This document shows positions 15,597-63,013 of a stretch of DNA of 64,000 nucleotides, one piece after another. The stretch is from Euglena gracilis. Lineage: Eukaryota. Position 1 is the stretch's first letter. Every line of letters begins with the position of its first letter. The translations under genes and the position numbers were made by a program. The stretch is taken from contig CP154954.1 in NCBI GenBank assembly GCA_039621445.1, positions 49,207,847 to 49,271,846 on the forward strand. Direction: 5' to 3'. Below the pieces are notes generated by a model. It ran no database searches. It worked only from the letters and a program-made list of their open reading frames with translations, and had not been told where the DNA came from.

Positions 15597-15639
<43 letters not shown>

Positions 15640-15894
15640 AAAAAAAAAAACAAAAAGTGCCATTTTTGGGGCACTTTTTTGTGGCAAAAAATGTGGCCAC
15701 ATGCAAAAAAATTTCGGCGGCAAAGGCGCCGGAGGAAAAATTGAACGCCTTTTTGGGGGGGTCCCCCCGGGAAACCCCCCCGAGGGTCGGTCCGGACCCC
15801 CCTGGCAGGTGGGGGGGGGGTGGTCCGGACCCCTCCATGCGGGCCAGGAGGGGGGGAGCCTAAACCATGTACGCCCTCCTTATATCAAACCCTG
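15430..15894. mobile_element. hAT-type MITE family A
   Basis: Same TIR and body; perfect TSD CCACCCAC; internal poly-A expansion 15598-15650. Confidence 0.92.
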
Positions 15895-32779: not shown

Positions 32780-35700
32780 AATGGGCCAAAAACCACTTTT
32801 TTGACCATATTTCCGTCCAGGCGGTTCGGTCGAATGAATATCAAGACAGGCGTCGGGCCCAGACAAAATAGGTTTTAGAAAAATCGACCGAGACTAACAG
32901 ATTCAGCAGGGGCGCCGCGCGGCTCGCTTCGCTCGCTCGCGCCCGGCGCCCCTGCTGATCTGTCAGTGTCGGTCGATTTTTGTATAGAAATTTTGGCATA
33001 GGCAGGGGGGGGTGGGCTCCGCCCCCCCCCCCGCACCCCCCCCCCTCAAATAACAAAATCCCTTCTATGTTGGCAATATACTTGGAAGTCCTTTTTGTGC
33101 AAATTTTGACTTATATTGAAAATCCAATGGGGAGAGGTGTTCTTTTGCCAAAAGTGGCCCAAAATGGACATTTTGCCCCCAGTTTTTTTGCATATTCACC
33201 CCCGATTGGGGGGGTTCTGGAGCCATTTGGGTGGGTTTTGACTGGTGATGAGGTGATTTGGACAAACGTTTTTTCTCGGGGGGGGGGCTTAAAAGTCGGC
33301 GAGACTGGCCCGAAACTACATTAGAGTGGGTGGTCGGCCGACTACACCCCCCCCCCCCCCGTCTCGCCGACTAGCTGCCGACCAGGCCCAATCGGCCGAC
33401 CAGTTGGGTGGTCGGCCGACCACCCGCTACCCCCCCCCCAGTCTACCGTCTGCCACAATTTGTCACCCCCTTTGGGCTCCTCTGGACCCTAGGTGACAAT
33501 AAGAGGGGGGTGGCAATTGGGGGGGTGGGTTGCCAGTAATCCACCCCCCCCATTTGTTTTTGTTTTTTGGCACACATTCAGCACGCCTGGAAAAAAAATA
33601 CTCAGCGCGCATGTGGTTTCTTTAGGATTACCCCACCCCCTAATTGTCACCTTTTGGGGGGACAAAGGGGGGAGGTGACGGTATGTGAAAATGAGGATTT
33701 GTCACCAGAATTCCCTATCATTGAGTTTTTGACGTCCCCCCCCCCTGCTTCCTTGTTTTCATATCTTGAAAGGTTTGTTGTATTCTAAAGTTTTCCACCC
33801 ACCGAACCTTTCTGCTGCCGTCCAAGTTGCTGTTCGTATAAGACCCATGACAAAAGCTGAACAGCTCTCTTCTCTTCTGAATCCTTGTTGCCAGAAGAAC
33901 TCCTGGTGAAAAACACCTTCTGACTCGTGAGTGTCTATTTGTGGGGGAAGTGCATTTCGAGTTGTGTTGTCTGTCAGTGTTGAGGTTCGCCCCAGACAGG
34001 TGGGTCATGCGTTTCTGGAGCCGTGCTGGGAGTTCCTGTTTTGCTCTGGACCAAAAATCGCTTCAAGGCCAAGCATTGTGGGGGTCTTTTGGGGGGGACC
34101 CCCAGGGCAGAACGGGAATCGACCGAACAGCCAGGGTGGTGGGTGGGGGGGTCGACCCCCCCCCCACCCCCTGCATGGTGGGGGGGTCGACCCCCCCCCA
34201 CCACCTCTTCCCGCATTTCCGGGAGCACCAATTTTTGGACCCGAAAAAAAATTTCCGGCGCCTTTGGCGCCGAGTGTTTTTTTGACCCATTTTGGGACCC
34301 ATATAGGGGGTCCCCCCAAAAACCACCCAAAACCCCATTTTTTCGCACCTTCCAAAAATTCGACATTTTCTCAAAATGTTGATTTTGAGAGGTTTTTGAA
34401 GCGAACAATGCCATTGAAAGTCCAAAAAAGTTCAACGAGAAAAAATGTCAGTAAAATTTGGCTGTGCCAAAATTTCGTCCACTTTTTTTGACCTTGTTTT
34501 TTTCACCCCCCCCCCTCCTAAAAAGTACCAATTTTTAGGACGGAAAATTTTGAGATTTTTTGTGAAAATTTGTGGTTTTCCATCAAAAAATCATGTGTTT
34601 TGGGTTCATTTTTCAAAAAATTTTCAAAATTTTTCTGGCCAAAATCCCCGTTTCCCCGAAATCGGTGAAAATGCTGTGGTGGGTGGGGGGGTCGACCCCC
34701 CCCCACCAGGCCTTCCCATTCTGCCCTGGGGACCCCTCCAAAGAAGCGTCCCTCCTACAGCTGGTGCCCTCTGTTCTTGGAACAGTTTGACAAACTCCAC
34801 AAAGAAACAACAGCTTTTATGAAGTGCTTCAACAGAATTCCCCAACTTTTTGACAGGGTCGTTGGAACAAAACAACATATTGTTTGATAGTTTTGATATA
34901 ATTCACAAAGCATCCTGAGTGCCAAAAACCGACATGTCTAAATTCTTTGTCAGTTTTATTTTTGAAAACATTTCAGAAACGCTGTCCAAAAGTTCCAAAA
35001 ACCTCTTCTCTGGAGTTTCATTCAAAATCCCAATCCGTTTCAACAACAAGGGCATTAGCTGTAAGAAGTTGTTCAAATGGTGCAGGTCTTCCCTGCCCCC
35101 CTCCGAAGGGTTTTTTTTTTGGCTTGTGCCACCCCCCACATTTTTGGGTTCTGCACCCCCACTTGGCATAATAGGGGGGGGGATGACCCGCGCGAAATAA
35201 GTGGGGATGGCTTATGTCGTGGGGATTGAACAACCAGTGGTCATTTTCCACCCAGAAATCACCAGTCTCCTCAATTACGCTGCAATTCTCCAGTTGGAAG
35301 TTTCAGGGGTTCCTTGTAGAGGAAAAGCTGCCCTGATGGTGGTATTGCAGAAGGTGCAATTGTTGCAGATGGCCATTTCGGTGTCAAAACAACTCGAGTT
35401 GGGGAACCCCCGAAAGAGTTTGTCTACAAGCAAGTCTCCATTTCTTTTGGAAAAAAATTCTTTTGTCCAATGTGACACCGACACACAGGGGAGGTCGACC
35501 CCCCGACCTGCCGGGGGGAGGGGTCTGGGACCCCCTACTCCCCCCCCCCAGGGCCCAGGGGGTGGGCAAGGTATAAGTGACCATCCCCCCGGCTGAGAGG
35601 GGATTCGACACCCCCCCTCAACTAAATTTTTTCTTCCCCGGCGCTCCGTATGTTTTTATCATCATTTTGTTGAAAAAAACTCCTGAAAACGCAATTTTGG

Positions 35701-36533
35701 ACACTTTTTGAAATCCCTCAAAAATAGTTTCCGGCGCTTCCAATAAATTTTTGACATTGACATTTTTTGGGTCGAATCCTCAAATTGAGATTTTCAAACT
35801 TTTTTTTAAATACGCCTGAAAATTCGGACTTTGGCACAAAAATTCGGAATATCCAGCATTTTTGTCAAAAAAGTCTTTTGCAAACCGTTTTTCCTAGGAA
35901 CTTTGATGATGTTCTTTTTTTAAAAAAAAACAATCCCAACCTTGATTTCGGGGATTCCCAAATAGCCCCCCCCCCCCATATTGTTCCCATCGGGCATCGG
36001 CTTGGGTGAGGGCCATTATTCTTGGGCACTGTTTTGAGTCAGGAGTGTTATTTTAGGCTAGGTGGGCACTATTTTCATATGGAGATTGGAATTGTAAAAC
36101 AGTAGGATGGATGGAGGAGTTCAGATTTGCGGATATGAAATCTTATTACATTATTGTATTTTTTAGTTTCATTGTAATTTTTTTATCATTATTATCACAT
36201 CATCATCATCATTAATCATTGTTGTTGCTGTTGTTGTTATATTATTATTGTATTACTCCAGGAGATACCAGCACCTGCAAACGGACTTTTGTGAATATCA
36301 GATCCAAACAGATGGGATTGAGATGGTGCCAGAGGAGGGATGGAAAAGGGTTCCCAAATGACAATCCGTATTGTTGTGCACAATGAAACTTAGCCGAGGC
36401 AACCACGCTGAAATATGAAGCTGGGGGGGGGCGGGCTTTAAAACTGGGAGAAGAATTAAATTGGCCAGGCCACGGTCAGTTGCTGAAGAGCAAGGGCCCC
36501 CTGACCAATTTTTTTTTGAACGTCCCTGTTTCA

Positions 36534-36660
36534 AATGGAGATTTGGCAACGATTACGTCTTCGACAGCGGGCAAGAAGAGGTTTGGGATTGCATCGGAAA
36601 GCCAATGCTGGCAGATGCCTATGATGGCTATAATGTGACTCTCTTTGCCTATGGGCAAAC
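36534..36660 (+). CDS. Kinesin exon: [42 protein letters not shown]
   Basis: Kinesin motif [12 protein letters not shown]; the 5' boundary is inferred from CTG+5 nt and is uncertain. Confidence 0.88.
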
Positions 36661-39600
36661 AATCAAGGCTGTTCCATTTCTGCAATGTTTAATCTTTTCT
36701 TCTTCCTTTCTTTCCATCAGTCTATTCAGTCTGGATCATTTGGGTCAAAGTTCAACAGGATTGGATGGTTTCACCTCATTTGACACCAAAAATCACCGTT
36801 TTCCCCCAAGGGAAACAGTTCTAAGCTTTGAGAAACGTGAGTGTTGTTTCAAAAACCTCTTAATCGCATTTCTTTGCCGTAGTTCTATGTCATTTTCATT
36901 TTTCAGAAAAGTTTTGGAGGATTTGGGGGGGATTTGGAGCCGGGGTGATTCTGTGGAATAAAACAGCACAGACGGATGGACCCAAAGTTTATGAGTGAAA
37001 AGGGAGCTCAGCAAGCTAAATTCAAAGAAGAAGTTGGGCTCAGCAAGCAAAAAATGTATGAAAATTCAAAATTCAACGCGGGAGGAAAAGGAGCGCCTGG
37101 GTGGTACATTAAATTGACAGCTTTTCGACATTGATTTGGTTTGGCTCGATCTGGGGCAGGTGCCTGCCAAAAGGCATCCCGAATACATACCACCAACAAC
37201 ACCCCCAGTGATTTCCATCCGAAAACGCTAATTTTCCCGCTTTGGGGAAACTTCAGAGGCCCATCAAGCACTGGGTTAACTTTGAGGAAAGAAGCAGGTG
37301 CTTCTGTGAAAATGAACACAAACGAGCCATCTGGCTTTCACAACAACACATATTTTTTTGTTTTTGTTTTTTGATACGATATATTTCTTACGGGTATGAA
37401 TCCCCCAGTTCCCACCGGAATGGCCCTGCCCACAGGGTCTGGTAAGACATACAGCATTATGGGGGAGGAAGACAGGGTTTGACAAAAGGATCTTTTTACT
37501 CGGGACCTGCTTGGGGACACAATTGACCACAGAACTGGGTGCTGCCTCCCCAGGTCCAAAAAAACCCCAGGGCAGGTGATTGGGTATCCCCCCATGTACC
37601 ACCCCCCCCATATTGTCCCCCCCCCCATATTGTCCCTCGGCCCGGCCGACGAGGGGTTTTTTTGGCTCGGTCAATGAAATTTCCTTTGGTACCCCCATAT
37701 TGTCCCCCCCCCCATATTGTCCCGTCGGGCCTCCTGGGGAGAGGTCGGTGGGACAATATGGGGGGGGGGGGTGGTAATTGAACCCCCCCCCCTGGTCATT
37801 GACCCCCTGGGCTGTTGAGATTGCATCCCCATAGTTGGCTCCGTGCGGAATAATGGCCATGCTACTTCTGGAGGTCGGGCCGACCTAGGTCGTGCCGACC
37901 ATTGGCCATGGCTTATCGACCTCTGGAGGTCAGGCCGACCAGGTCGGCCGACCCCCCCCTTTTGGAAATTTGAGGCCCCCCCCCCTCAAAAAATTTGATT
38001 CTCTTATTTCAATTCGAAATGAATGTAAACACATCTGAATGTCCTTAAAAACGTCAAAAAACGTCCCAAATTCAAAAAAAATTGTGGAAAACGGCTAACT
38101 CAGGTGAGATACATGACCAATGACAAAAATTCCTTTGGTGTGCAATGCCCAAACCCTAACCCTGACCCTGACCCTAACCCTAACCCTAACCCAGCTCTTT
38201 CATCCCATATTGAAAAAAAAAATTGAAAAACGCGAACTTAGTCGGCCTACGGCCTCCTCCGGGGGGGGGGGGGCGTAAGCCCCACCCCCCCCCCCGGACC
38301 CCCCGGTTTAAAATAACAAAATCCCCTTGTGTGTGCAAGACAAGGATGGCCAAAACGCGCGTTCTTTGTGCTAACTTAGTCGGATTTCAGTGACGGTCGG
38401 ATAGCAAACAAGTATCTTCTTTGAGGCCAGAAAAATTTTTGATGTGTGTAGCCGGCTGTTCAGAAACGTGATAAATTGGCCCCTTCAAGGTACCAGCTAC
38501 CCCAAAGAGCCGCCCAACTAGGGTTAATACACATGGGGGGACCCTCGCTCGGCGCCTCGCTCGGGTCCCCCCATGTTTTTAACCCTAATTGGGCGGCTCT
38601 TTGGGTTCGCTGGGTACCTTGTAGAGACCAATCTAACAACGTTGAGCGGGAAATGTTCTGCTGTTTGGATAAGAATCGTAACCCTGACCCTACTCCTTCA
38701 AATAACGTCAGAAAATCTTTTTTACCACAGGTTGATGCCATCAGGAATTCTTTTTATGCTAAAATTGCACTTTTTATGCTCCACAGGGTTTGGCCAAGGG
38801 TTTGGATGCTTTTGAAAAGGAAAACCATTGAGGTCGTTTCTATCGACCTTGTGATCGTCCCGACCTCCAATTGGTTTGGGCCGACCATATGGTCGGTAAC
38901 CCAAACAGGTCGGGCCGACCAGGTCGGCCCGACCTACAGTCAAAAGTCCTTTGAAAAAGGGGGGGGGGTAATGCAGTACAGTGGTGTTTTCTGTCGACCT
39001 CCAGAACTAGCATGGCCAATATTCTGCCCGGGGCCCCCATAGTTGGCCCCCTCTTCTGTTGGGCCAACCGACCGCGAAAAAAGTTACAGGTTCAAAAATG
39101 CACTTTCAGGAATGTTTTCCCCACAGAAATGTGTTTTTTGACAGACGATTTTTTGATCAGACGAGCACACTTGAGGAAGTTGGGGACCCAGATGCTTTTT
39201 TTGCTTTTTTGGATTATTCATCCAGATGTGGAATGTCAGCCCAAGTATGGGGAAAGTGACCCTCCTGAACTGTTGGGTCCAACTTGACCCCCGAGCTTGA
39301 CCCCCCTCCGCTGTTAGGCCCAACTTGACCGGTCAATAACATGAAGGGGGGGGTATTAACCCCCCTCCTCCCCGGGATATTACCATGCCTGAGAACTTGT
39401 CAGGGCCCTGCCCGGGAAACTTTTGGGTCCCCAGGAAGGGCCAATGTGTCATAATTTGGGATTTACTTAGCCGGACCCTCACGTGGGTCCAGCCAGCCAG
39501 CACCTTTTTTCCAGCCAACTGCAAGGCTGTACAGGAGCTCCTGAAACCCAATGTGGTGGGGGGGGGGGTCGACCCCCCACCCCCATCCTCAGGTATAGAT

Positions 39601-42600
39601 GGAAAGCCCATCGGTTCATATTGAGTTTGGTGAAATGTGTGAACAAAAATATGCAAAAATCCGCTTACCCCCCCCCCTCAAAGAGCACCGTCCAAAGTGG
39701 CCAAAAAATATTGGCAAATTTGGGTTTACCCCCCCTCAAACTTTTTCCTTCGGCACCAAAAGCGCCAAGGCCAAAATTGCCCCAAGAAAGCAATTTTTTT
39801 TTTACCGACTGGTGCCCCCGGGGGGGGGGGGTGAGTTCGTGGGGACCCAGAAATTTTTCATTGAAAATGGCCTTTTCCGGGCCCCCGGCACCTTCGGCAC
39901 CAGGGTCGAAGGGGGTGCCTGCCCAAAAACCCGACCCCCCTGGGGGGGGGGGGTTCGGATGGGTGCTCTTGGGTGCCTGGCACCCACCCCCCCGTGGGGT
40001 AGGCCCCAACGGAAAAAAGCCTGCCCCCCACAAAGTGTCCCCCCCCCAGCGTGGCCATTTTGGGTCCCACGGTGCCTCGAGGGTAGCCACTTTGGGGGTG
40101 AGGGCACATGCGCACTTTTCTTGAGACTTTTTTGAGACTTGGAAAACTTTCAGGAAGGCCTGGACCCTTGGACATTTCTTCAAACAGTGACTAAAAAAGA
40201 AATGGAAAAAGCGGCCCAAAGTGGCAAAAAATGGCTTGAAATGACCTCAACTTGCCAAAAAAAAAAATAAAAAAAAGTTGGCCCAATTGGCAAAGAAGGT
40301 CCACAGCGCGGAGGGGGTTCCCCCCAACCACCCCCCCCCTGGGGGGGGGGTCGGGGGGGGGGGCTGGTCCCGGAGGACCAGCAGCCCGACACCCCCCTGG
40401 CCCTGGGGGGTAAGGTGGGGGGGTATCTGCTGGGGTTCGATATGAGGAGGGTGTACGGGGTTTAGGTGGGGTGCCCTCCTGGGACCAGAGGAGGGGTCCG
40501 GACCGACCCCAGGGGCGTGCCCGGGACCCCCCCAAAAGGTCAATTTTTTCCTTCTGGCGCTTCGCACCGTAAAATTTTTTGGCCTTTCTGACAAAAAATA
40601 CTTGCCCAGAATGTGTCCAAAATGGCACATTTGCAATTTTGGGGGTCAAAAATCTCGGCCCAGCGCTTTATGCCAGACTGAAATCGGTCACCCAGACTGT
40701 GCCACAATTAAGTCGGGACCCCCCCCCTGCTGGATCGGAGGGGGATCCGACCCACCGTCCCCTCCCTCCATGGCAAGTTCCAAAAATAGCTAATTTTTTT
40801 CTTCCAGTGCTGCGCGCCAATAAATAAACAAGAAATGCCATTTTCCCTTCACTTTTGAGAATATTCCTGTTTTGCTTTGGTGTTTTTCTGCATTAAAAGG
40901 TTTTGAAAACCGTTCAAAAATGAGCATCTTTGGATTTATTTTCAAAGAGGAATCAGGCTTCGGCCTGGTATCTGGCTGGCCCTTTGCCAGTCCAACAAAA
41001 ATTTTCCTGGCCCCCTTCAGTTGGAGGGGGGGTGCGACCGACCCACCCACCCCCCTCTGTGTTGGGAGGGGTGGTCAGGACCCCCCTCAAGGCTTCCCAC
41101 ACATCCCTGCCCATCCTGCTGGGTGGGGGGGGACGACCCCCCCCCCTCACCAGGCTTTCCCGGGCTTCCGGGGGGTGCCCATTTAAAGTCAATTTTTTTC
41201 TTCGGCACCGAATAAATTTTCCCTTCGGTGCTGTAGTGGGTGGGTAGAGGTCAACCCCCCCCACCAGGCCTTCCGTACGGCCCTGGCCGGCTCCCCCCCG
41301 TGGATGAGGGGCTCGGGGGGTGTGGGCTATTGTGCTGGACCCGGGTTGTACCCCCCCCCCTCCCCCTTGACCACTGACCACCCCGTATTTGCCAACCCCC
41401 CCCCCCAATCGGGGGTTGCGTACAACCCGCGATTGGCGATGACCTCACAAAGCAGGGTTTTTTGGGGCATCGGGTCATACGACCCCCTGGTCGGGGAATT
41501 GCAGGTCAGGGGCTTTGTTGCTCCCCCCCCCTAGTTTTTCACATTGGGTGTTCTTCTGTGAGCCCCAGTTCAGCAAGCGTCTCTGAGGAAAAGGGGTGCT
41601 TGCCAGCAAGCCCAGAATTCTACAGGAGCCAGCCCAAATTTCAAGCTCTGCCCAGCAGCCACTGGGTCGCAGGGGGCAAGGGGGGGGGTCGAATTACTGG
41701 TGATTTGACCAGGTCGCCATACCATGACCACATCATTGTCGCTATACCATGACCAATGGTCTCCAGCAACCATCAAAAATCCCATGGCCAATTTTTCTGT
41801 TCTGCCCCAAAACCCCCCCCCCCCCCCGGGATGAACGGGAATAAAAACAGGAATTGCTGCAACCGTATTTGCCCCCCCCCCCCCCAACCTGCAGTCAAAC
41901 CCTGGAGGAGGGGTTCCCTGGCCTGATTCCCCGGTTCGTCAGTGCCATGATGGGGATGGCCCAGGACAAGCTTCAGGCAGACTCAACCCTCTCTGTGAAG
42001 AGCATGAACCTCCTTGGCATTTTTAATTTTTTGTTTTTTTCAAAAAGTTGAATTTTGAATTAAATAAATTAATTTTAAAACCACAAGATTAGTATTCAGT
42101 ATTCCACACCAGTGCCATGGAGGTTTATGGCCCGCTCACGATGGAGTACATTGAGATCTATAACGAAAAGATTCGTGATTTGCTTGAAAGAAGGAAACCA
42201 GGACAAGTTGAGTTAAGTGAGCTGTTCAAGAGACACCACAAGCTTATTTTTTCTAGTTTTTTTGTTAAATTTCTTATTTAATACTGTTAAAAAATAAGCT
42301 GCTGAAATTATATACATATGTGTATTTTTTAAAAATAATATTTTCTTGTTGACAGCTTCTGGTCATTGCCGTGTCAGCCACATCATCACGCCCTGTTTTG
42401 TTTGAAGCGCATGGACCAGACTTATTTTCAGGAAGCCCCCCCGGGGGTGTGGCAGGGGGGTGGGGTGAGGCATTTTCGACCCTCCACCAGGGGTGGGTCA
42501 CCGAAGGCACCAGGGCCCGAAAATGTCCATTATCAAGGGGGGAAATTGATTGGGTCGGCCTAGGCCAAGACCCAAAGGACCCCCCAGGGTATTTGCTATG

Positions 42601-43429
42601 CCGCCACAGGGGTTGGTCAAAAGAAGCCTGCATGGACAATTTGACCTCAAGTGCCTCAAGTGCAGTCAACTGTGGCAATTTTTAGATAAAATCGAATTTG
42701 AAAATTGTGACCAACAAAAATGTTTGAAATAATGGGTGGTGCTTTCATGCCCAGCTTGATTTACCATGAACCCCCCTCTAAATGACCCCCCATCCCAATG
42801 ACCATTTGGGGTGGGGGCCCTTTTGGGTGCGGAAGTCCCCCCTAAGTGAACCCCTTTCCCCTAGATGACTCTTTGGAGGACATGGACCAATATCAACAAG
42901 GTCAGAAGGGGTTGATGATAAATGAATAACATCCTCCCTGCCATTTGAGACGTTTTTTTTTTGTGGACTCTCTTGCGACCGGCCCTGCATGAAACAAAAG
43001 ACCACCGGGTTTTTGTGGAGGGAGTGTCGGTGCACACCATCTTGACACTTGAACGGGTGAACACACTGCTGGCCAAGGGTTTTGCACAGCGGCAGACTTC
43101 AGAAACAAATATGAACGAAAAGTCTTCACGGTCTCATGCCGTTGTTATCTTTCGCTTGGCACAACTCAGGGAACGTTGCCCGTGTTCATTGGAAATTTGT
43201 GGTATCAAGCCTCTATTTTGTCATCTTTTGATCTTTTCTGAATTTGCTTTTTTTCCAACTCGCAAAATTGGTCCCGACAGAACGAAATGATGGGGTGATA
43301 TTGGCACCTCCACCTCGCATCATAGATCCTCTAAGATTTTTGGATTTGGCAAATTAACAAACCAACCAACCAACCAACCAACCAACCAACCAACCAACAA
43401 ACAAATAAACAAGCAAACAAACAAACAAA

Positions 43430-43517
<88 letters not shown>

Positions 43518-46500
43518 ACACCACACCACACCAAAGCCCATCCAGCGTCAAAAAACAAGCTTTGATGATAATTGCATGTGAATTGCGGAAGAACTTGTCG
43601 GCCAGGATCATTTATTTCCTCTTGCGTTCTCGCGTCAATTTGTCAGCAATGTTGTTCACAAAAGTCTCGTGAAAAGATTACCCCTCCATTGTTTTGTGTC
43701 TGACCATCAATCCAAGCGTTGTGTGGGGCAGCAGTCCCTGGGGACAACCCACGACCCTCCCAACCCAGAAGCGCGCGACGTAGAGAGTACCATTTGTATT
43801 GTGGACCTTGCAGGCAGTGAGCGCCAGAGCAAGACTGGGTCCTCAGGAGACCGCTTTGAAGAGGCACGGAGGATTAACCTCTCCCTGTTGACCCTCAGCC
43901 AAGCTGTTCTTTTGAAGGTGAGGGCAACAACCCCCCCCCCTCCCCACAGGTGCGCAGGGTGGGGGTTTCATCCAGGGTAGGGGACCACCTGCCAGGTGTC
44001 CAGCCAGAACCACGTGGGAATACCCGAAACCCTGCGGGTGGTGGGGGGATCAACCCCCCCAACCCCCATCCTGGTGGGGGGTCGCACCCCCCCCCCCAGG
44101 CTTCTTTGTATTTCTGGGTGTGCATTTTTGGGTCAACGTTTTCTTTTGGTGCCAAAGGAATCTTTCCAGGGTGCATTGAAATGAAAATATCCAGTTTAAC
44201 CAAGCTGTGTCCCTTGAAAAAAATTTCGGCACATAACCAAACGACTATGAAGCCCTGCGGTTGGTGGTGGGGCAACAGGTTTAATAGTATTTTCTGAGAA
44301 AGTTTGCCCAGGAAGTGTCGCAAAAAATTCTTTTTGGGGTTTGTTTTTGTGGTACAATTTTTTTCGGCTCAGTGGCTCCCCCATGCCTAAAATGGTCCAA
44401 TTTGGCTTCCTAACCCCCACCCCCTGCCTCATTGCCCCCCCCCCCCCCCGGCTGTTGGGGCCAACATGCCCCCACCTCCCCAAGTTGCCCCCCCCCCCCC
44501 CGGCTGTTGGGGGCGAAATGTACCCCCTTTTTTTTTTTGAGGCAATTTTGGCTTGGCGGCTTGTTGGCCCCCCTCCCCCCTTCGTGTCACCCAACCCCCT
44601 TTGCCATAAAGCACCAGGGGGCACAAACCAGAAGGAAAATATAAAACCTGTTGTCGATGACAAGCTCACCCAGCCCCCAGGGTCCAGTACATGGCAGGTA
44701 GAGTGGGGGGCCTGCACCATGATTCACTTAGTTGACCCCAAAGCTGCCCAAGTTTTTCTGAAAATGCGCAACACTCCCCCATGAGAGGTTGACCCACCCA
44801 CCCACCCATCCTTTTTCAAAAAAAAAATAATTGTGCCCAGCATTCAGTGGGGAAGGCTGCACTGGCCCCAGGGTTGTATGGGAAGCTCCGCAGACATGAG
44901 GTAGGTGGTGGGGGGTCACCCCCCCCCTAGAGGGGTAAGGTGGTAGGGGGGGGTCCCTCCACCCCCCCCCAGTTTCGGAAGGGGGGTCCCCCCCTCCCCC
45001 CTCCCCCCTCCCCCTCCTCTGCAGGGGCAAAAAAAAATTTCCGGCGCTTCGCGCCGGGGGTGTATTTTAGGACTTTTTTGGAGGCTCAACATGAAATTTT
45101 GGCAAAATGGCCAAAAATGACCACAAATCGGTATAGGTGGGGTTGCATGGAAATCAAAGCACTGTTAGATAAGGCATTTTAAGGGCTTCAATTTAGGTAT
45201 TGGACATTTCTTTTGATTCCCCACCATTTTTGAGAAATTTCAGAAAAATTGACCTTTTGACTCCAAAAAGCGGTCGAAATTTTCGGCGACCGAAAACTGG
45301 AGGTAGGAGGGGGGTCCCCCCACCCCCCCCCTCCCAGTTTCGGAAGGGGGGTCCCCCACCCCCCCCCCTCGGAGATTCCCAAACAACCCTGACTGGCCCG
45401 GACCATGTTGGCCCCAACAGGCCAGGGAGCCTGCTTCGGGGGGGGGGGGGGGCATGTTCACTCTAATTGGGGAACTTTGGGGGTTAAAAATGACAAACAC
45501 ATTCGAGCGTTTTGCGGATCCCACTGGGGTCACCCCGGCAGCCAGCATGACCGGAGCATGACCGGTTGCTTGAGAATTCCCATTGCCCTTCAAAATGGCT
45601 TTCAGAAAACGGAAAACCCCTCTGGGTTGGCCGAGGACAGCCTGCCTTGGGCCGTGCGCTGAACTCATTTTCTGAAGGCAAGGGGCCACCGGGCACTCCC
45701 TCTTTTCGGCACTGTCTCGAACCTTGTTTTCTTTTGGTGGAAAAAGATGTATGAATCAGATTTGAATGTGGTGTTCATCATTCATTGTATTGATGGAGTT
45801 CAGCCCACCAGCAGGTATCCAGTTGGTTTGATTTCTGAAAAATTTTGCGTTGCATGAGCAGGGTGTGAGGGGTCGCTGCAAATCATCAATAGCAGAAGGT
45901 TTCCACCATTTCCCACCCCCCCTGGGGAGTATTTGCCTGGTTGCAAGGAGGGATAGCAGTAGATATTCATTTATCCAACTTTTTTTTAATGCGCTATGCA
46001 TTCACCACATTTTGTATGCATTCACAAATTCTTTTTCTTTTGTTGGTTATTTGCTCACCCACTGCACTGGCACTGGATAATGAGGGCAGTAGTGCAGGCA
46101 GATGGCATGGTTTTAGAAATGGACGGGTGCTGCCGTTGCGCGAGTCCAAATTGACGCGGTTGCTGTCTGAGAGTTTCGGTGGGAACTCGAGGACTTGGAT
46201 GCTGGCCTGTGTCAGCCCCAGCATGTACAACTACATCGAGACCGTCTCCACTTTGTCCAGCAGGCTCCGCAAACAAAGCTCTCCGGGCACGCTGGGGGAA
46301 AATGGGAAGTTCTGCCCTGGTTTCAAAAGGCTTGGGTTCCTTCCGTATTCGTTGAGCTCTGCTGCGTGCAACGTACGCGTCTTCGGCAAAGAACATCATC
46401 AACCATGCAAAGGTCAACGCTTTGCAGCAGAAGCTTGAGTTGCAGCCAGGCTGTTTTGTTTGAGGGCAAGAAGGAAGGCATTTCGGCCTCCATGTTCCAG

Positions 46501-49500
46501 AATGTGCTGGGGACATAGACGTACCCCCCCCCCTTTGCCCACCAACCACCCCTGAATAACGACCACCCCCCGGTTGGGGGTTGCAGGTCAGGGGGTGCGT
46601 ACGACCACCTCCCTGATCGGGGGTTGTCGGTGGCTTTGGAAACTGGTTTGTTTTTGGCATCTAATCGTACGACCCCCTGGTCGGGGGTTGCAGGTTGGGG
46701 GGCGTGTACGCCCCCCCCCCCTGTTGGGGGAGTAACTTGGGTGGCTTGACTCGCACGTTGATTTTTGCACTGCTCCCAAGCGCAATGTTGCAATCTTTTT
46801 GAAACCCGGCGGTGAAATCCACCCTTTTGCCCTTTGGTCCCACCGAGAACCTCTACAATGGCACGTTCATTTGGTGGTCTTTTTGGCCGGTGCACCATGT
46901 TGAAAAAAGTCCAAAACCCCGGGTTTGAACTCTGGGGCACGTGATTTCTCCCAAAAAGGGCCGTTGTGATTCCCCCATTGTGATTCCCTTGTTTTGAAGC
47001 TTTGACTGTTTTCCCCAGATGGTGCTACGCAGGCTGGGTGAATTTTGGCCCTTTTTGTTGCTTTTTTTTTTAGGCTGTGCGATGTCCGTGTGGGGTTGCC
47101 TGCTGAGGCGCCCAGAGGGTGGACTCTGCACACACGTTGTGAAAAAGGTGGAAACCCGGTGTGCCAGGGAGTTGTGATCCCTGGGTGCTTGAAGCGCGAG
47201 GAGCGGTACACTGGGAACCACCCAGGTAGAGGGGTTGGGGGGGTTGGATTGAGGGGAAGCACGTTCAAGCTCACCTATTGCGTATGTGCGCAATGGATAA
47301 CTGTTGCGCATGTGCGCATGGTAAACGGAAGCCCCTGATCTTATGGGTTCTCTCTCTGGCATGTTATGGTGTGTCAGGAGCAGGCTTGTGCTTAGTCGGG
47401 TGCCTACCCCGCGGGGGGGGGTGCTAGGGGCAGGCATCCCATAGCACCCGATCCGACCCCCCCCCCCAGGGGGGTACGGGGGGGGGTAGGGTTTTGGGGG
47501 GTGCCTGCCCCTAGCGGGCACCCCCTCCGACCCCGGCGCCGAACGCGCTGGGGGCCCGGAAAAGGCCATTTTGAATGAAAATTTTCTGGGTCCCCCCCGG
47601 ACCCCTATCCCCCCCAGGGGCGGTGTGCCTGCTAGGGGCAGGCACCCCATAGCACCCACCCTCCCCCCCCCGGTTGGTAAGCACAAGCATGGTCAGGAGA
47701 CCCTCTCTGCACGGCCAGTGTTGGGCTTGGTGAGGAAATTTGTTTCGCCGATAGAAATGCAATCTTTATACATACACAAGCGTGCCCATTGCGCAGATGC
47801 GCAATGAACATGTTAACGTATGAATTCTTATAATTGCCAAGTGCGCAATGATCACCCACATGTAGAATTAAAAAAGCTAACATCGCCGATGCGCAATGTG
47901 TTTCATTTTTTGTGAAAAGAATTGTTGTGCAACTGCACAATGGAGTCCCCTCGTTTCATTTCCTGGCGCTTTGGGTTCATGCACACGGGGCCTTGGCAGC
48001 CTGTGCCTTCAAACCGTGGTGTTCCAAGTCGTTGTTTTCGCCCCCAGTCCCGGGGGTGCAGGGTCACACCAATTCGGTGAACCTGGGGCCTCGGTGTTTG
48101 AATACAGAATTTTTTGGGACATTGCACATCGGCGCAAGCTTACAGTCACTTTCACAGCTAAATGCGAGTTAGGCTGCCTAACTTGTAGGAACCCGGGGGG
48201 GGGGGTAGGATGTATTGACACGCTGTCTTGGATGGGGAGTAATGCATTTCCCTGCACTTTTATTATCATCATCATTGGTCTTATATTTTAACTTTAACCC
48301 TTTTTGAGTAATAATTTTCATTTTCCTTTTTGGAGGTTGTTGTTTTCTGGAAACAGTTCCAAAATCATGCTGGGACAGCAAAAATTTTTGATTCATTCAA
48401 TGTATTTGACTCCAGCTTATGACATTAAATGAATTTTGTTTCGAACTTGGCCTGGCTTGAGTCCGCCTTGAGCAGGGGCCTATTTATATTTAAGCAGCAC
48501 ATGATGGCAACCCTGGCCACCCACAAAATTTGGAGTGTGCACGTAATCAATTCCCCCACTGTACGTGGTGTGTGTGTGTGTGTGTGTATAGATAGATAGG
48601 AAGATATGGATGTATTTGTGTGTTGGGGCCATATTTTTTTTCCATGGCAGGAAAAATCTGATATTGGAGATGTGGGTTGGTTACCAAAATGCCCTGATTG
48701 CAACAGTTGCGGAAGCAATATGCTCAGCTGGAAGAATTGTGGTCAAGGCGCACCCTTCTGCTTGCTGCATCTGATTTGTGGCCTCATTTAAAACAGTGCA
48801 TTGCACAGGCCCATCAGTCCTGTTGCCGATCTCAAAAACGCGCTCTCAAAATTTGCTCAGCCAATTTTCATTTTTTTTTTCAGGATTTTGATGGGCAACC
48901 AGCAGTTCTGCGATTGGGAGGGGACAGGCTCTACGGGAATCCCTGAAACCCCAAGGCGACCCCATGTTTCAGGCGAGCTGATTTTTAGGTCAAAAGTTTT
49001 CTTTGGCGCCGAAGGAATTTTCTTTTGCTCGGTTCTGCGGGGAGTCGCCCACCTCCCAAACCCCCAACCAGGCCTTCCCATTCCGCTGGAGGGGGGGGGC
49101 TTGTGCAAGCTCTTTTTCAGGAAGGTCGCACCCTCGGAGGGTGCTATGGGCAGGCAGGGGAGTACAACAGCATTTTTTTTAGGATTGGGACCCTGGGGGG
49201 ATTGGGTGGCAAACAAAAAGAAACTGTGGCAAATGCAAAGAAAAAATTGTGTTGCAGAAAAGTGCTGTTGACACGGGGGGGGGGTGTCAACGACACGCCG
49301 TGTCAACAACAAGGGGGGGTAACCCCCCCCTCCCGGGAGAACCACTCAGCGGCTGGGGCATCGGGCTGAGTGGTTCTCTGGGGGGGTTACCCCTCCCCCT
49401 TGTTGTTGCCACGGGATGTCGTTGACACCCCCCCTGTGTCAACGGCACTTTTCTGCAACATATTTTTTTTGGTGAAATATGAGAGGTCCAATCATGGAGG

Positions 49501-52500
49501 CCATTTGCTGGTGCGGTCTGTTTTTTTTTTATGGGATTGTGCCGTTGGCACGGCTATGTCGTTGACCCCCACCCCCGTGTCAATGGCACTTTCCTGGAAC
49601 ATTGGCGTGCCAACCAGGGAATTTCTTAAGCCGGCGGGCACCCTACCCCCCCGGGTGGGGTCCAGCCAGCCAGCAGCTCAAATCCAGCCAGCAGCCCAAA
49701 TTCGGGCTGGGAGCCCCCCCCCCCCCCGGGGGTCGACTGAAATCGGCTCCAGCCCAGCCGGAGGCCGGGCCAGCTGGCCGCAGGCTTGGCCAGCCAACTG
49801 GGCTGCCCAGCTCACATATCCATGCATTTTTCCCCCTCACCACAGCTTCCTCCATCACAGCCCCCCAGCCTTGATCTAGCTCCATCCATCAAAATGTCGA
49901 AAATGGCAAATCTGTGTTAGAAAATTTTGTTTTTCATCGACCCAGCCCAGCCCAGCCCAGCCCCCAGCCCTGGACCCCCCCTCCCCCCCACCCCCCCCCG
50001 GGGGGGTGTCCAGCCAGCAGCTCATTTCCAGCCAGCAGCCTTTTTGCCAGCCGGAGGCTGGACCCCCCCCCCCCCGGGTGGGGGCTTTAAGAAATTCCCT
50101 GGTGCCAACGAAAGGGGAGGGGGCTCAACTTTCGGCGCAAAGCGTCGAAAACTTTTTTGGACCCCAGAAGTTAACCCCCCCCCCCAAAAGTGGGGCCTGG
50201 GGACCCTGGGGGGGGGCAAGGGGGCGTTCGATATTGATTTGCCAGGTCCTACCCACTCATCTTCCCCTCGGCATGCTGCAACCCTGCAAGTCTCACCCCC
50301 ACCACATTTTGCCTCCCCCTTGGGCTTGAATGTGCCACTTCTGCCCCCCCCCCCCAACGCCGGGCTGTGTCGTGGCGGCACCACACCGAGAAGGAGAAGT
50401 CGAAGCAGCAGCAGATGGAGCTGCAGGAGCGGGCGAAGCAGATCCAGACGCTGCGGGAGGAGGTGGAGGCGCTGAAGGCCCAACTGGAGGCCAGGGCGCG
50501 GGCGGGGGTTGCAGGTGTGTTCGGCGCGAGGGGCCGAATTGTTTTCCAACCCGCCTCCCCCAAGCAACCTCGAAAATTGAACCTGCAAAGGTTCAAAATT
50601 GCAATGAGTCCAAAATTAATTATCATCAAAATCCACATCAAATCATGATGAAAATTCGACGGAGGCGGGAAAAAAAACATTTTTTTGGCCAACTTTCGGC
50701 TGCGCGTTTCACGTCGTGCAACCGACAAGAGGAGTTCAAGTCACAGGAGTTCAAGTCGCAGGTCAGGGGTCCAGGGCGAGAAAAAGACTGACCCCCACCG
50801 CAGGAATTGGTTCCCCTTGCAACGATCAAACTTTGGCAGCCTCCCACTATCCGGCCCGTGGGTCGTTAAGTACTTCCAGGGGGGGGGGATGGTGAAACCC
50901 GGGTCCGACTGTCGGGAAAATTCGGGGTTATTTTTTGGAATAGGGTTAGGTGCACGACCGGATTCCCGGATGCTTCCCCTGTTGGGGACTTGAGGGTAAA
51001 GTTCAGCCGGCTTGCGGAACGATCTTTGGGGAATTTGTGTCGATTTTGGGCAATTTTGGCGGAAACATGTGATTCCAAAATCCTTCCCAGAACGGAACCG
51101 GCCGAACTTGGTCCCCAAAAAGTCCCAATTTTGGGCGCGCCAATCCTCACCCTAACGCTATTCCCAACATTAAGGGGGAACCCTCCCCGGGTCCGCCACC
51201 GGTGACCCGGAATCCGCGCGGTTTTCCGGCGCCGCGGGACCGAAAAGTCGAAAAGCGGGCCCGGGTCCCACCATCTGCCCCCCCCCCTGGAAGTATTTAA
51301 CGACCCGCGGGCCGGATAGTGGGAGGCTGCCCTCACTTTATCTGGCACACACACTGGGTGCCACTTTACAGCTACCCGCTGGGCCAACTTTGCATTGTGG
51401 AAAACCCCACAACTGACCCCCTCAAGCAGGCCTGCTGACCTAAGTCTGGCAGGCTTGGTGGCCACAAACACAGCTACCCCCCCCCCCCATGCCAATGAAC
51501 TCCCTTGCCCAATGAACAGGGGGATATCGGGACCGTCCAGCTTGTCACTTTTTACAGCAGTTCAAATGCCCGCGCAGCCTATGCCCCATGGACAGCTCGC
51601 CTGCACCGTGGAGATTGTCATTTTAGCGTTCATTGGGCTTGCGGGGCGGCACGCAGTGCAGGATGAAGGCACAGCCAGAGAAGCCAAATGCTGGGGAATG
51701 GTTCCTGGAAAGGGAGCATCCAGATCGAAAGATGAAAGATCAACGGCTCATGTCCACATGACCCCCACATGTGTGGGGCCCCTCCAACTTGTCCTATGTA
51801 ATGTCTAATTTCACTAAAAATTTTTTTGGGGGGTTGCATCCCAGAAAATACCACGACCCCCCCTCAAATGACCCCCCCCCCCTAAGTGGTCCTCCGGGGT
51901 CCGGTTGGAACATGAACATTTTTTTCAAAATCAAAATGGGCATAAAACACTCATTTTGTTTGAAAATTTTCCGAAAAAAATTTTGATCTGATGGAAAAAA
52001 TGGTGGGTTGCCTGTACTCGAGCTAAGTTGTGTCCTCATTGAGCGGATTTCTGCCGGGGCCGTACTGGCGGTGGGGCGGGGCTGGGGAGGGCGTCCCCCC
52101 CCCCCCGGCGCAGCGCCCTGCGGCTGGGCCGGCCCGCCCGGCCGCTGGAGAAGGGGGCCCCGCTGTTTGTGGGCCGCGCCAAGCTCAGCCTCCGCAACAT
52201 CATCCAGCAGGTGAGCAGCTACAACACGCTGCCCCTCATGCCGAGGGCCGGGCCTGGCCAGGCCGGGCATCCATGCCACACCACAGCCCGACCCGCCCCC
52301 CCCTGAGAGGCCCGGCCCTCCCGGCCAACGGACAACCTGGAGAACGACGGGGCGGCGCTGATGGTGAACACGTTCCCGGTGGTGGACAAGGAGCGTGGGC
52401 ACATCGAGTACGAGACAGTGGAGGAGGGGCTCGCCGCGCTGCTGGGGAAGCGGCTGGTCCAGGCGGCAGGCGGTGGAGTTTCCGTGACGCTGGGTGGGTG

Positions 52501-52519
52501 GGTGCTTGTGGGTGGGTGG

Positions 52520-52562
<43 letters not shown>

Positions 52563-54039
52563 CGTTACACGTTGTGTGTTGTGTGCGTGCATGCATGTGT
52601 TGCGTTTGTGTGCGCGCGCGTGACAATAACCTGGGGTTCACACCCAAATGCACAATACACACACACAATCAGGCTGTATTTTAGTCGGGTGCCGACCCCA
52701 CCCAGGGGGGGGGGGGTAGGGCACTCGGCCAAAAGTGCCCAGCAGGCATTCCGGCACCGAAGGCTCAAAGAAGGCCTAAACCCGCCCCCCCCCCCCAATA
52801 GAAGCGCGGGGCCGCTTCAAGTGCAGGGTCCAAATAAAAGCGCACCCCCAGCTTCGAAGGCGGCGGTCCACTACAAGCGCACCCCCCATTTTGATGAGAT
52901 TTTTAAAGGAAATAAACAAAAATCGGGCAGGAAGGGTCCAAATAGAAGCGCACCCCCCGCCGCCAGAGTCGGCAGTCCGCTACGGGTGGGGGGGGAATTG
53001 GATGCCGAAAAAATTGATTGGGAAAAAATTGGCGTACAGAAATCCTGCGAAATTTTTCCGGCCCTTTTTTTGAAAATCCTGCCTCAAAATTTTCAAAATC
53101 GCCCCTTTTTCCAGTCATCTTGCAAAAAAAAACCTGCCAATTTTTTCCGGGCCATTTTCAGGGTTGGCACCAATTTTTTCGGCTTCCAATTTTGTCGATT
53201 CTAATCTAGCTTCAATCCCCCCCCCCGGTATAAGCGCACCTGCGCTTCCATTGGGGAGGGGGGGTTTATTTTCTAGGAAAATGGCCTATTCTCTGAGGAA
53301 AGTTCCTGGGCACAGGCCGAAATCCGACCTCCCCCCCCAGGGGGAGGGTAGTGCCTGCCTGGGTAGGCACTCAAGGGCACTCCGGAACCCCCTGGGGTTG
53401 GTAAAAGAAACAGAATACACACAACACTCATACACACACAACAGACACAACCATACCATTCATTGCTCCACACCTGTCCCACCCCACCCCTGGGGGGGTG
53501 ACTGACTGATTTTTCAGAGTGACTGACTGGTTTTCTGGCCAAGAACCCCCCCCCCCCCCGGGTGGGGGTGTGGGGTAGGCCCGAAAATAAAACAGTGGCC
53601 GGCCTGGTGCCAAAGGCGCGGAAATTTTTTGGATTTTTTGAGACTTTTTGGCAAATGTTCATTGCCTCTTCCTCATTATTCAAGAGTGGCCGATCCCCCC
53701 AGGGGAGGTAAAGTGACTGACTGGTTGTTGTTTTTTTTGAAAAAATGACTGACTGGTTTTTTCAGAGTGGAAAGTGCCCCCCCCCCCCGGGGTCGTTAAG
53801 CAATGGTATGAACACAACACACACACACACAACGCACAACTCACACAACACACAACACACATACACACAACACACATACACACACAACGCACAACACACA
53901 ACACACAAGACGCACGCACACACACAACACACAACACACACGCAAAAACACATATGATGCACAACACACACGCATCTCACATACACGCACACTCACACAA
54001 TACACGCAAAACACGCACACAACACAGAAACACAAACAC

Positions 54040-54078
<39 letters not shown>

Positions 54079-59454: not shown

Positions 59455-62400
59455 GCGGGGGGGCCCCTCACTCAGTACAGTTCGGGGAGCTCGCTTATTA
59501 AACCAAATTTCTGGCCAGCCAAGGAACGTCCAGGGGTCCTCAACGAACTTTCTGAGGCAAATTTTTTGTCCGACAGAAGCCTGAAAAGTCAACTTAATTG
59601 TTCTTTTTTTTCCAGCAGCCCCAATCACCAAGGCTGCAACGCTGGCATTTTTCAAGGTCGTTATTATTGGTCAGTTGGAATGAAAAATGCCAATGCCAAT
59701 TGTAAAAGTGTGGCAGTTTGCTCATTCTTTTGTATCGTAGCAGGTTCGAGGACATACAATTTTTTTACCCCCCCCCCGAACTCCCTCCACTCTTCGAAAA
59801 ACCAGTTCGGCACTTTTTTCGGGAAACCAGGCAGTCACTACCCACCCCAGGGGGGTCGTCGGCCACTCTAGAATCCAAAGGAAATTTGACCAAAAACATG
59901 AAAAAAAAATGGCCCAAAAAATTTCCTGCACCTTCGGTGCCGGGTCATTTTAGTAGTTTTTTTGCTGACCCCTCCGGGGGGGGGGGGAGGTCTGGGCCAA
60001 AAACCAATCAGTCACTCTGAAAAAGCCAGTCATCCACCCCCCGGGGGGATGGGGTCGGCCAGTGACTAAGTGATTGTATTTTCCAGGATTCCAGTAAAAT
60101 CACCCCCCCACATCTGCAGCCATGCCCACACCCACAACCAGACAACCACCCACACCCCTCCACCAACCTAGCCACTGCTCACTCCCTCCCCCTGCCAGTG
60201 CCCCCCCCCCCCCAAACTTTCAACTCTGTCTGTGACCCTGAACTGCAGTGCTCGCTGCATATAGGGCCACTGACCCAGCGAACCGCATCCCCAGCGCCGA
60301 TATGCCGCGGGTGTCCGTTTGCCGGCCGTCACACCAGCAATAACATTTTGGTGGTCAGATATGTGTTTTTCTGGCTTGCTGGGATTCCCTGCAAATGAAC
60401 CTTGCCTGTTTGTTTGTGTCGTGTTTGATGACGGAGAACATTGGGATAAATGAATTCTTTCTCAGCGGGATTTTTTCCCACATCTTTTCACAGGTTATTG
60501 AACTGTTTTGCAGGGATTCCTTAAGCCGGCGGAGACCCAACCCACAGAGGAGGGGTCCAGTCAGCCAGCACGTTTTTATCAGCGAGCAGCTCCCAGCCAG
60601 GCTGCTGATCCCAAACACAGTTGGGGCCAGCCTAGCGAAGCTGGCCACGCTGGACCAAAAAACTTTTCGGCGCGAGTGCCGAAGTTTTTCAGAAAATGAG
60701 AGCCAAGGGTTGGGCGTTTTGTGCATTTTCGGAAGTTGACATTTAACATTTTCACGTTTGTGTGCAATTTCCAATCATGTGCAATTTATCGCATTTTTTT
60801 TCGCCTTGAATTTTTTCAGCACATTTTTTCCATTTTGGTGTTTTTTTGTCATTTATCATTTTTTTGTGCATTTTGGACAACATTTCATAATTTTGCATTT
60901 TTGCATTTTTGCATTTTTGAAAATTTTTGACTTTTTAAGCTTGTATTTTCGTCATAGTACCATATAATTCTTGTAAATTTGTTGCTGTTTTCCATTTTCA
61001 TGACTCTTGTGCTCTTCCTGTCAGATTCTGCACATTTTTGCGCATTTTTTTTTTGGAAAAAATGTACATTTTTTTGTGCATTTTGTGCATTTTTGACTGG
61101 TCAAGGTTGGCCAAAAAGTGGCATTTTTAAAGTGTTTTTGGTTTTTTAACCCCAAATTTTATGGGATCCGGTTTGATGATAAAACAGTCTTCATAAGTTG
61201 GTGTTTTCTTGAACCGAGGCTCAGTGGGTTCCCGGAAAAGTTCCACAAGGATGCCATTATGAATAATTCTCCCCAGAGGATGTACGATTTATTCCTCTCC
61301 CACAAAGAGGTATTCACCCTTGGGAGCCCTGGAGGAATTTACAATTCAACTTTTTTTTTTTGAGTTTTTGAGTGGTTTTGAGTTTGATTTGCGTGTTTTG
61401 ACAACGAAGGCCCACGTTGTTTTCACCCCCAGCTGAAGGATGGGGGTGTAATTGTGAGGAGGTGCAGGTTTCCTATGTCGGTTTATGTGCTATTTATATC
61501 TGTTCAGGTGCTATTCCAGTCGGATATTCTCAAGCCAGCGCCATATCCTGCACAGGTGGGGTTTGCAGGTGATTGGCCACAGCATGGACCCACCCATGGC
61601 GTTTCCATATTTCGCAGTGCCCATCAGCACAAAAGCCTCCAACCCCCAGCCACAAATTCTGTTCACCAACAGGGCGGTCCTTAAGGGACAGGAAAGTTTT
61701 TTTTATTATTTTCTTACGGACAGCCCCCCTTTCGGGCAAACTGGACCTGAACGGGGTCCCAAACTAAAAAGTCCAAAAAGCACATTTTTTGATGATTTGG
61801 GTGGATGGGCGATGGTCCAAGGATGCCAAGATTCAGTTTTTTCCCTGATGTCGACCTGTTGTCACCGAAGAATGCCCTGTGTGCTGGGCAGCGGAGTTTT
61901 TTTTTTCCCTTAAGGACCGCCCTGCTCACCAACTCATAAATGAACTCTCAATCTCAAAAACAAACAACAATCACAGCACACACCCAAGCTGTTGATGTCA
62001 GCCTACTCTGGCCCGACGGCCGATGGCCGTACATTGGCGCTCAGCATGAGGCATCTGGATCCAGCATTATCCGTGCTACCACAGGGAGTGCTGCAAACCA
62101 CAGGGAGTGTTGCACACATTGATCTGTCTCTGGTCCAAATCCAGGTGCCTCATTGTCCCCGTGAGCCCCTGCGCTTTCGCCGAGGATCCCACTGCTCCCG
62201 CCCGCCTGACGCTTTATGATAGTGGCACTCTTACCACACACACACCTTTCGCATGGATTGCACATGTGCACCAGAGACTTTTTTTTATAAGTGTGCTTAC
62301 CCAGGGGGGAAGGGGAGGCTGGGTGGGTGGGTCCACCCCCCCCCCCCCCCAGGGGGTCGGGCCAAGCACGCCGCCCAAGGTGGGATTCCCTTCTATTTTT

Positions 62401-62630: not shown

Positions 62631-62974
62631 TCAATGGCCCCCTCGGCAGACAGCCGAAAGGGGCCTCAGCTGCGCCGGCTGCCCAGCTGCGATTTCCCTC
62701 TTGCTTTCTGCCAGGGATGGTTGCTGGAGGCCTGCTGTCCTTGCCGGTTCTTGTATCAAATATGTTTGTCTCACATTTCCTAATGGACCTTTGTCACTCA
62801 GAGCAACATGTCTGGATTTTCCGCTGTTGGTTTTGTTGGTTGTGGAAGAAATCGTGCCTGTTTCGTTGCAGGCTGCAGGTAACCACTTTTTACAGTGAAA
62901 GGGTTTTGTGTTGTGTGTTTTTGTCTGTCGGTCAAGGTGTGTGTAAGTGTGTGTGTGTGCGTGCGTGCGTGTGC

Positions 62975-63013
<39 letters not shown>

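Follow-up and report, generated by a model that had tools for sequence, protein, structure and literature searches.

A nonconventional intron of a Euglena gracilis kinesin gene that probably began as the insertion of a non-autonomous hAT-like transposon

Nonconventional (NC) introns of euglenids are removed independently of the spliceosome and released as full-length circular RNA (cited in PMC11282704 and PMC12501133; papers given by PMC number are cited here and below for parts of their text), and the code 5'-N3CDG/CH'GN5-6|R has been described for them (Nomura et al. 2025, PMC12501133). About 70% of the introns of Euglena agilis are of this kind. In 2025, 84% of the introns of that species were reported to be 'slidable', their origin being called unclear (PMC12501133). 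An origin of NC introns from miniature inverted-repeat transposable elements, or MITEs, was proposed in 2014, before any euglenid transposons were known (PMC3935182), and a review of 2024 remarked on repeats resembling target site duplications (TSDs) at NC introns (PMC11282704). In E. agilis, the gapC gene has an NC intron of recent gain that is flanked by 8-nt direct repeats, for which the authors favoured break repair (PMC4770533). Here we analysed a 64-kb window of Euglena gracilis nuclear DNA (the whole stretch presented above) together with public sequencing reads, and we describe coding intron 5 of a kinesin gene, at positions 37470-41909, whose 5' end resembles the terminal inverted repeat (TIR) of a MITE family, family A, present in the same window.

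Introners of Micromonas, Aureococcus and dinoflagellates, a topic credited to Huff et al. 2016, are likewise non-autonomous elements with TIRs and TSDs. Inserted into exons, they are taken out of the mRNA, with the TSD helping to restore the exon sequence, and many families take part in a process that is ongoing (PMC11282704). They differ in being spliceosomal, with GT/AG-type sites co-opted from the element and its TSD (PMC11282704), whereas the Euglena case would follow the non-spliceosomal NC route, guided by a TIR stem and with fixed 3/5-nt offsets that sum to the TSD length. The introner elements of Amoebophrya are also non-canonical, with inverted repeats of 8-20 nt, a hairpin that joins the exons and direct repeats overlapping the junctions; their direct repeats measure 3-5 nt and, in the part of PMC7789003 cited here, no family-specific inverted-repeat motif is described, in contrast to 8 nt and a CAGGG end in Euglena. 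Amoebophrya belongs to the Alveolata and Euglena to the Euglenozoa. Elements of the hAT superfamily have an 8-bp TSD and short TIRs that start with a YARNG-type pentamer, which CAGGG fits. The elements described below share with the hAT (Ac/Ds) type the 8-bp TSD and the CAGGG-compatible ends, and differ in that no hAT transposase was found in the 64-kb window. Maize Ds elements can reportedly be spliced from transcripts, work credited in PMC3935182 to Giroux et al. in 1994. With the known euglenid NC introns (Milanowski et al. 2014, 2016; Nomura et al. 2025), intron 5 shares the lack of GT-AG, CAG at +4 to +6 and CTG at -8 to -6, as well as a stem formed by its ends, a purine as the first base of the downstream exon and a boundary rendered slidable by a short direct repeat. 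In itself it is no different from them; what is added here is an end that is like that of a specific multi-copy MITE family.

The kinesin gene was delimited by mapping a transcript-derived protein, eukprot:EG_transcript_6461 (P0001; 611 aa, with kinesin motor and C2 domains), onto the window, where it occupies 18 coding exons on the + strand between 26505 and 55944. The translation of a 61-aa exon was 100% identical to this protein. In the 18-exon mapping the segment 37470-41909 is coding intron 5, and the name 'kinesin intron 2' that an earlier note on this DNA had given it was wrong. RNA and DNA reads were placed on 36300-43300, to the exclusion of a microsatellite that starts at 43332, kinesin introns 8-17 and the second gene described below. 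An RNA joint that skips 4440 nt (37463>41904) was present in 60 raw RNA-seq reads (33+27, with 48 start places) in X21 and in one contig each of X15 and X16. The joint can be slid by up to 6 nt within the direct repeat GGAGGA found at both junctions. In the DNA run X1 the same joint had a depth of 0, and single-copy contigs crossed both junctions of the intron. The segment is a real intron that is removed from the kinesin mRNA. Among the RNA joints listed for the reads on 36300-43300 there was no back-joint across the intron ends.

Nine borders of intron 5 are compatible with P0001, and of these 37470/41909 alone fits the N3-CAG/CTG-N5|R code, with 3 nt, CAG, a perfect 11-bp stem, CTG, 5 nt and then a purine, as published. 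Intron 5 is an ordinary member of the euglenid NC class. Its stem consists of 11 consecutive Watson-Crick pairs with a duplex energy of -23.8 kcal/mol, compared with -12.6 (sd 5.5) when the intron ends were mismatched. The gene's 17 coding introns are all nonconventional, GT/GC-AG being found in 0 of the 68 allowed boundary solutions; the registers were N3/N5 in 14 introns, N3/N4 in 2 and N3/N6 in 1. Seven of the 17 introns follow the strict CAG-CTG code. The other ten have an off-register spacer or degenerate stem starts (CAA…TTG, CAT…ATG, CAC…GTG, GAG…CTC, TGG…CCG).

Family A was recognised from its ends, CAGGGTTCGAT at 12980, 13369 (-), 15430 and 3984 (-), with the variant CAGGGTTTGAT at 15894 (-). 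Three copies align over their full length and have a common 19-bp TIR, CAGGGTTCGATATAAGGAG; there is in addition one degraded copy. Family A is thus a genuine MITE family, its similar copies bearing TIRs and standing at separate sites with TSDs that are perfect and, for two copies, informative. Altogether the window holds about ten CAG…CTG elements with 8-bp TSDs, most of which start with CAGGG (Table 1). Those with clear TIRs start with CAGGG; family A and four other TSD-flanked families have this start. We scanned the window for inverted repeats with exact 8-nt ends lying 60-3000 bp apart and compared the flanking 8-mers. Flanks matching at 7 or more of 8 positions were found for 5 of the 71 CAG-ended pairs (4 at 8/8 and 1 at 7/8) and for 22 of the 7813 pairs with other ends; 4 of the latter were perfect, 3 of them palindromic extensions of the repeat and 1 A/T-rich. 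When every CAG…CTG pair was scanned under looser conditions, 8 perfect flanks were observed, compared with 2, 0 and 3 in shifted controls. Perfect 8-bp duplications in this window go almost exclusively with CAG ends. Solo family-A-like ends without a partner lie at 2596-2606 (-), 5275-5285 (-) and 5707-5717 (+), the one at 2606 matching at 16/19, and are probably truncated copies. A metagenome scan with the 19-nt family A TIR gave 2 loci, each a single end with no inverted partner, which were taken as chance.

The earlier note had claimed that the intron stem nearly equals the family A TIR. When the family A 19-mer was scored against all 2077 CAG sites of the window, at least 15/19 was reached at 7 of them, six being family A ends and the seventh the 5' end of intron 5, whereas the next best sites reached 13/19. 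The claim holds in this form, the 5' end with its 15/19 being the best match outside the family. Beyond the fixed CAG, 12 of 16 positions match (binomial probability 3.8e-5). The likeness extends to 6 of the 8 positions directly past the 11-bp stem, which match family A though they are unpaired with the 3' end, so that selection for the stem does not explain them. The pentamer CAGGG occurs at 9 of the 34 kinesin intron ends, that is, at 9 of the 18 ends that start with CAG, whereas in the window GG comes next at 12.9% of CAG sites (p=1.6e-4; ends that belong to one intron are not independent). Intron 5 would be at best a relative of family A, and not a member of it.

The signal expected of an insertion was sought in the 8-mers that flank the stems. 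For the 14 kinesin introns in the N3/N5 register we compared the 8 nt before the 5' stem with the 8 nt after the 3' stem; as a control, the left 8-mer of one intron was paired with the right 8-mer of another, which keeps positional preferences including the pyrimidine|purine rule at the junction. The flanks of intron 5, GAGGAAGA and GAGGAGGG, match at 6/8 positions, as do those of intron 46444-48701 (GTTGCAGC/ATTGCAAC), and the flanks of intron 43897-45649 match at 5/8, all as first noticed. The earlier tally of 43/96 (44.8%) had counted 12 introns in register, where we count 14, but its proportion stood: 50/112 positions (44.6%) match, compared with 31% in the control (permutation p=0.0037). 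Without the junction positions 5 and 6 the excess remained (34/84, p=0.015), and the fall to background level that the earlier note had named as refuting its reading did not occur. With all 17 introns anchored at their exon boundaries it was 58/136, again compared with 31% (p=0.003), and with intron 5 dropped from the set it was 52/128 (p=0.018). The exact slide length of the kinesin introns had a mean of 2.0 nt, compared with 1.1 in the control (p=0.006). The first intron of the second gene (4/8), its MITE (8/8) and its third intron were kept out of these statistics. Taken over the kinesin gene as a whole, the TSD-like signal is significant, also when the junction positions are excluded.

It is very improbable that all this is chance, that is, that the family A likeness and the 6/8 flanks of intron 5 are selected coincidences in a genome rich in repeats and in G/C runs and that the excess over the gene is the noise of a small sample. 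The 6/8 match of intron 5 alone is unremarkable, with P=0.013, or 0.21 for at least one such match among 17 introns, and the flank statistics rest on the 17 introns of one gene. Several MITE families set against 34 intron ends give many openings for a good match, and a search with the 11-mer and one mismatch gave 14 matches where 6.6 were expected, a number reached in 1 of 100 shuffles. Against coincidence stand the permutation probabilities of 0.003-0.018 across four variants of the test, the lack of any further CAG site outside the family at 15/19 and the enrichment of CAGGG at kinesin intron ends.

An intact family A copy was found inside a second gene. The open reading frame (ORF) beside the copy at 12980-13369 led to a transcript-derived protein, GGOE01007656.1.p1 (P0011); GGOE01 accessions are Euglena longa transcripts (bioRxiv 10.1101/573709, cited in part). 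P0011 is collinear with the minus strand of the window at 16502-16404 (82%), 13517-13371 (90%), 12978-12913 (91%) and 7785-7579 (65% identity), and it reads …PELSCTDLC|LQDE… without interruption where E. gracilis has the family A copy. The minus-strand DNA at this place reads …GA TTTGTGCC [CAGGG…CCCTG] TTTGTGCC TGCAAG…. On the strand of the gene the element conforms to the NC code (GCC-CAG…CTG-TTTGT|G, with a perfect 19-bp stem), and removal of the element plus 8 nt in silico restores the frame T-D-L-C-L-Q. Judged from the DNA and the E. longa protein, the copy appears to interrupt the coding sequence exactly as an NC intron does, and would be a putatively spliced one. P0011 has a sub-threshold F-box match only. 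A Sushi-repeat reading of the ORF, suggested by short repeated matches, was dropped once the E. longa orthologue had been found. At the junctions of the third intron of the same gene (7786-12918, -) stands a direct repeat that matches at 7/8, CGCGTGTG/GGCGTGTG, in a register that is uncertain, the orthologue being 65% identical there.

We read the segment 37470-41909 as a functioning NC intron of EG_transcript_6461 that most likely began as the insertion of a non-autonomous hAT-like transposon with CAGGG…CCCTG ends and an 8-bp TSD, a reading to which we give a probability of roughly 0.6. An element of this kind would have inserted into a kinesin exon at the target GAGGAGGG and duplicated it. 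In the pre-mRNA the two former TIR arms would pair as the 11-bp stem and bring the junctions together, and the NC machinery would make one cut 3 nt upstream of CAG and the other 5 nt downstream of CTG. The offsets are those of the cited part of PMC12501133, and the length of the TSD was measured here; because 3+5=8, the element and exactly one copy of the TSD would be removed, and the frame before insertion, …GGG GAG GAG GGG TTC…, would be restored. Both junctions would then be the same position of a duplicated 8-mer and for that reason show the same pyrimidine|purine pattern, and the same arithmetic would account for the 8-nt direct repeats at the gapC intron. Thereafter the part of the left copy that lies in the intron, three bases long, would have drifted from GGG to AGA and the interior would have been filled with nested repeats, while selection for splicing kept the stem perfect. 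We infer the insertion origin, the assignment to hAT and the chemistry of excision from the features given above.

The name hAT-like is drawn from the length of the TSD and the terminal motif of the superfamily, no transposase having been found in the window. Family A and the other CAG-ended elements show the 8-bp TSD of hAT, and the hAT target preference nTnnnnAn is weakly visible (9/20 positions, p=0.03). The elements thus appear hAT-like, and other superfamilies with 8-bp TSDs are also possible.

A different history that would leave similar traces is convergence on the splicing code: NC splicing would require the stem, the MITEs would resemble introns by coincidence or because elements persist in genes only when they mimic the code, and the direct repeats would come from another mechanism of gain, such as the repair of double-strand breaks with staggered ends or microhomology that Milanowski et al. 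put forward in 2016. The stem together with the CAG/CTG motif is required for splicing by experiment (PMC12501133), and the 8-nt direct repeats of the new gapC intron have been read as break repair, as said above. Convergence sits less well with the 15/19 match to family A, which includes positions outside the stem, with repeats whose register is the 8 nt specific to the families and equals 3+5, with an excess of flank identity that is specific to each intron and is no general preference at junctions, as the 31% of mismatched pairs indicates, and with the near confinement of perfect 8-bp duplications to CAG ends. We regard convergence as unlikely, though as an explanation to be reckoned with.

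The interior of intron 5 bears on another history, in which an ancient intron later received a family-A-like insertion next to or into it and the TIRs took over as the splicing stem. In X1 the summed contig depth over 37470-41447 was 1e3 to 4e5, compared with about 70 for the flanking exons, so that the interior is built of repeats in very high copy number; near single-copy are the ~150 nt at the start of the intron and the ~460 nt at its end. The intron contains a family A copy in degraded form and, as a candidate, an element of 1.5 kb (Table 1), the latter of low confidence, as about 1-3 perfect 8/8 flanks were expected by chance in that scan. Nested CAGGG elements, three different ones, are present in kinesin introns 2, 9 and 13 and show how such introns grow. 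These elements lend the replacement of ends some plausibility, but the exon junctions are precisely where the flanking 8-mers of intron 5 lie, in the register of an insertion into an exon, and an insertion inside an old intron would put no TSD on coding sequence. We consider this history very improbable indeed. ORFs of at least 140 aa in intron 5 showed no Pfam domain. A telomere-like (CCCTAA/CCCTGA)n run was noted in the intron at 38142-38199.

Table 1. Positions of the kinesin exons and intron 5, of its stem and flanks, and of the CAG…CTG elements in the window.
Feature	Coordinates	Strand	Remarks
Kinesin coding exon 5	37434-37469	+	P0001 mapping, RNA joints on both sides, Pfam kinesin positions 84-96
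NC intron (kinesin coding intron 5), 4440 nt	37470-41909	+	AGA-CAG…CTG-GAGGA, then G
Kinesin coding exon 6	41910-41999	+	P0001 mapping and RNA joint
Left flanking 8-mer, putative left TSD copy	37465-37472	+	GAGGAAGA; 5 exon + 3 intron nt
5' stem arm	37473-37483	+	CAGGGTTTGAC; first 19 nt match family A TIR at 15/19
3' stem arm	41894-41904	+	GTCAAACCCTG; exact complement of 5' arm; read as TIR, matches family A at 12/19
Right flanking 8-mer, putative right TSD copy	41905-41912	+	GAGGAGGG; 5 intron + 3 exon nt
Degraded family A copy in intron 5	40433-40666	-	blastn identity of 75-90% to the three intact copies
Candidate nested CAG…CTG element in intron 5	39590-41109		perfect 8-bp TSD CCCATCCT; TIR 8/12
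Family A MITE, intact, 390 bp	12980-13369	-	19-bp perfect TIR; perfect TSD GGCACAAA at 12972-12979 and 13370-13377
Family A copy	15430-15894		perfect TSD CCACCCAC
Family A copy in G run	3564-3984		TSD GGGGGGGG, uninformative
CAGGGCAGAA… element in kinesin intron 2	34103-34728		TSD GGGACCCC, 8/8
CAGGGTTGT… element in kinesin intron 9	44869-45391		TSD ACTGGCCC, 8/8
CAGGGAATTTCTTAA… element in kinesin intron 13	49615-50101		TSD GTGCCAAC, 8/8
CAGGGCGGTCCTTAAGGGA… element, 19-bp TIR	61670-61924		TSD TTCACCAA/CTCACCAA, 7/8
CAGGCT… element, TIR 11/12	4399-4631		TSD ATTGTCGC, 8/8
CAGGGGGG… element, TIR 9/12 ungapped	9917-10478		TSD CTCTAGAA, 8/8

Several further results, besides the small sample and the unremarkable flanks of intron 5 taken singly, weigh against an origin of intron 5 by transposition. 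Its 3' end matches family A at 12/19, a score reached by 33 of the 2077 CAG sites. In blastn comparison family A similarity is absent from both ends past the first 19 nt, and in X1, at 95% identity, each end was found as a single copy, as convergence would also have it. With 4440 nt the intron is not of the size of a MITE, which is usually below 1 kb. CAG…CTG stems could also result from nothing more than selection for the splicing code. A Pfam scan of the 108 window ORFs of at least 140 aa found the kinesin domain only and no transposase. Among proteins of 145-2000 aa or of 45-144 aa, none was found to be the E. gracilis transcript product of the second gene. Stem quality, finally, is uncorrelated with flank identity in the 14 kinesin introns, which is also in keeping with convergence; for the duplex energy the correlation was non-significant (rho=0.28, p=0.34).

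This last result concerns a series of ages, from intact MITE to decayed intron, that the earlier note had proposed. Over the 14 introns no such series could be recovered from stem length and flank identity, which are uncorrelated (Spearman rho=-0.005, p=0.99), and intron length showed a trend only (rho=0.48, p=0.08). The intact end of the series does exist, in the family A copies with perfect 8-bp TSDs and in the copy at 12980-13369 inside coding sequence. Since splicing needs the stem, selection should preserve it, and the perfection of a stem is therefore a poor clock; the missing correlation is for this reason weak evidence either way.

Rfam and tRNA scans of the window gave no matches. Introns and flanks contain long microsatellites, made up of (CA)n, (CAAA)n and (GT)n, at 43332-43565, 52500-52560, 53800-54150 and 62900-63010, and homopolymer runs of G or C, 10-25 nt in length, are found all over the window.

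Our literature searches, which covered neither subscription-only papers nor supplements, found no published euglenid MITE families, 8-bp TSD, copy in coding sequence or 3+5=8 relation. Distributions of direct-repeat length may already be contained in PMC12501133, in its datasets and its figures on slide distance, and in Table S3 of PMC4770533. The concrete element families and the arithmetic of the TSD appear to be new.

The origin of NC introns and the reason for their 3/5-nt offsets have been open since the 1990s, and the MITE hypothesis of 2014 was still called unresolved in 2025. The window supplies named families whose TSDs measure 8 bp and whose ends are intron-like, one copy in coding sequence and a numerical link between the length of the TSD and the offsets, by which the old hypothesis becomes directly testable. 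It is nearly as likely as not, in our estimate, that NC splicing is an RNA-level eraser matched to CAGGG hAT-like elements, so that insertions into exons are removed exactly and are phenotypically silent, that most NC introns are fossils of such insertions and that family A represents an 'NC introner' active in recent times. The causal direction may be either that the introns arose from MITEs or that MITEs survive in genes by mimicking a code that existed before them. If the proposal is true, euglenids would represent a non-spliceosomal system of RNA excision that has co-evolved with a class of transposons and has given rise to the highest known share of non-canonical introns, and family A could be used to watch the birth of an intron.

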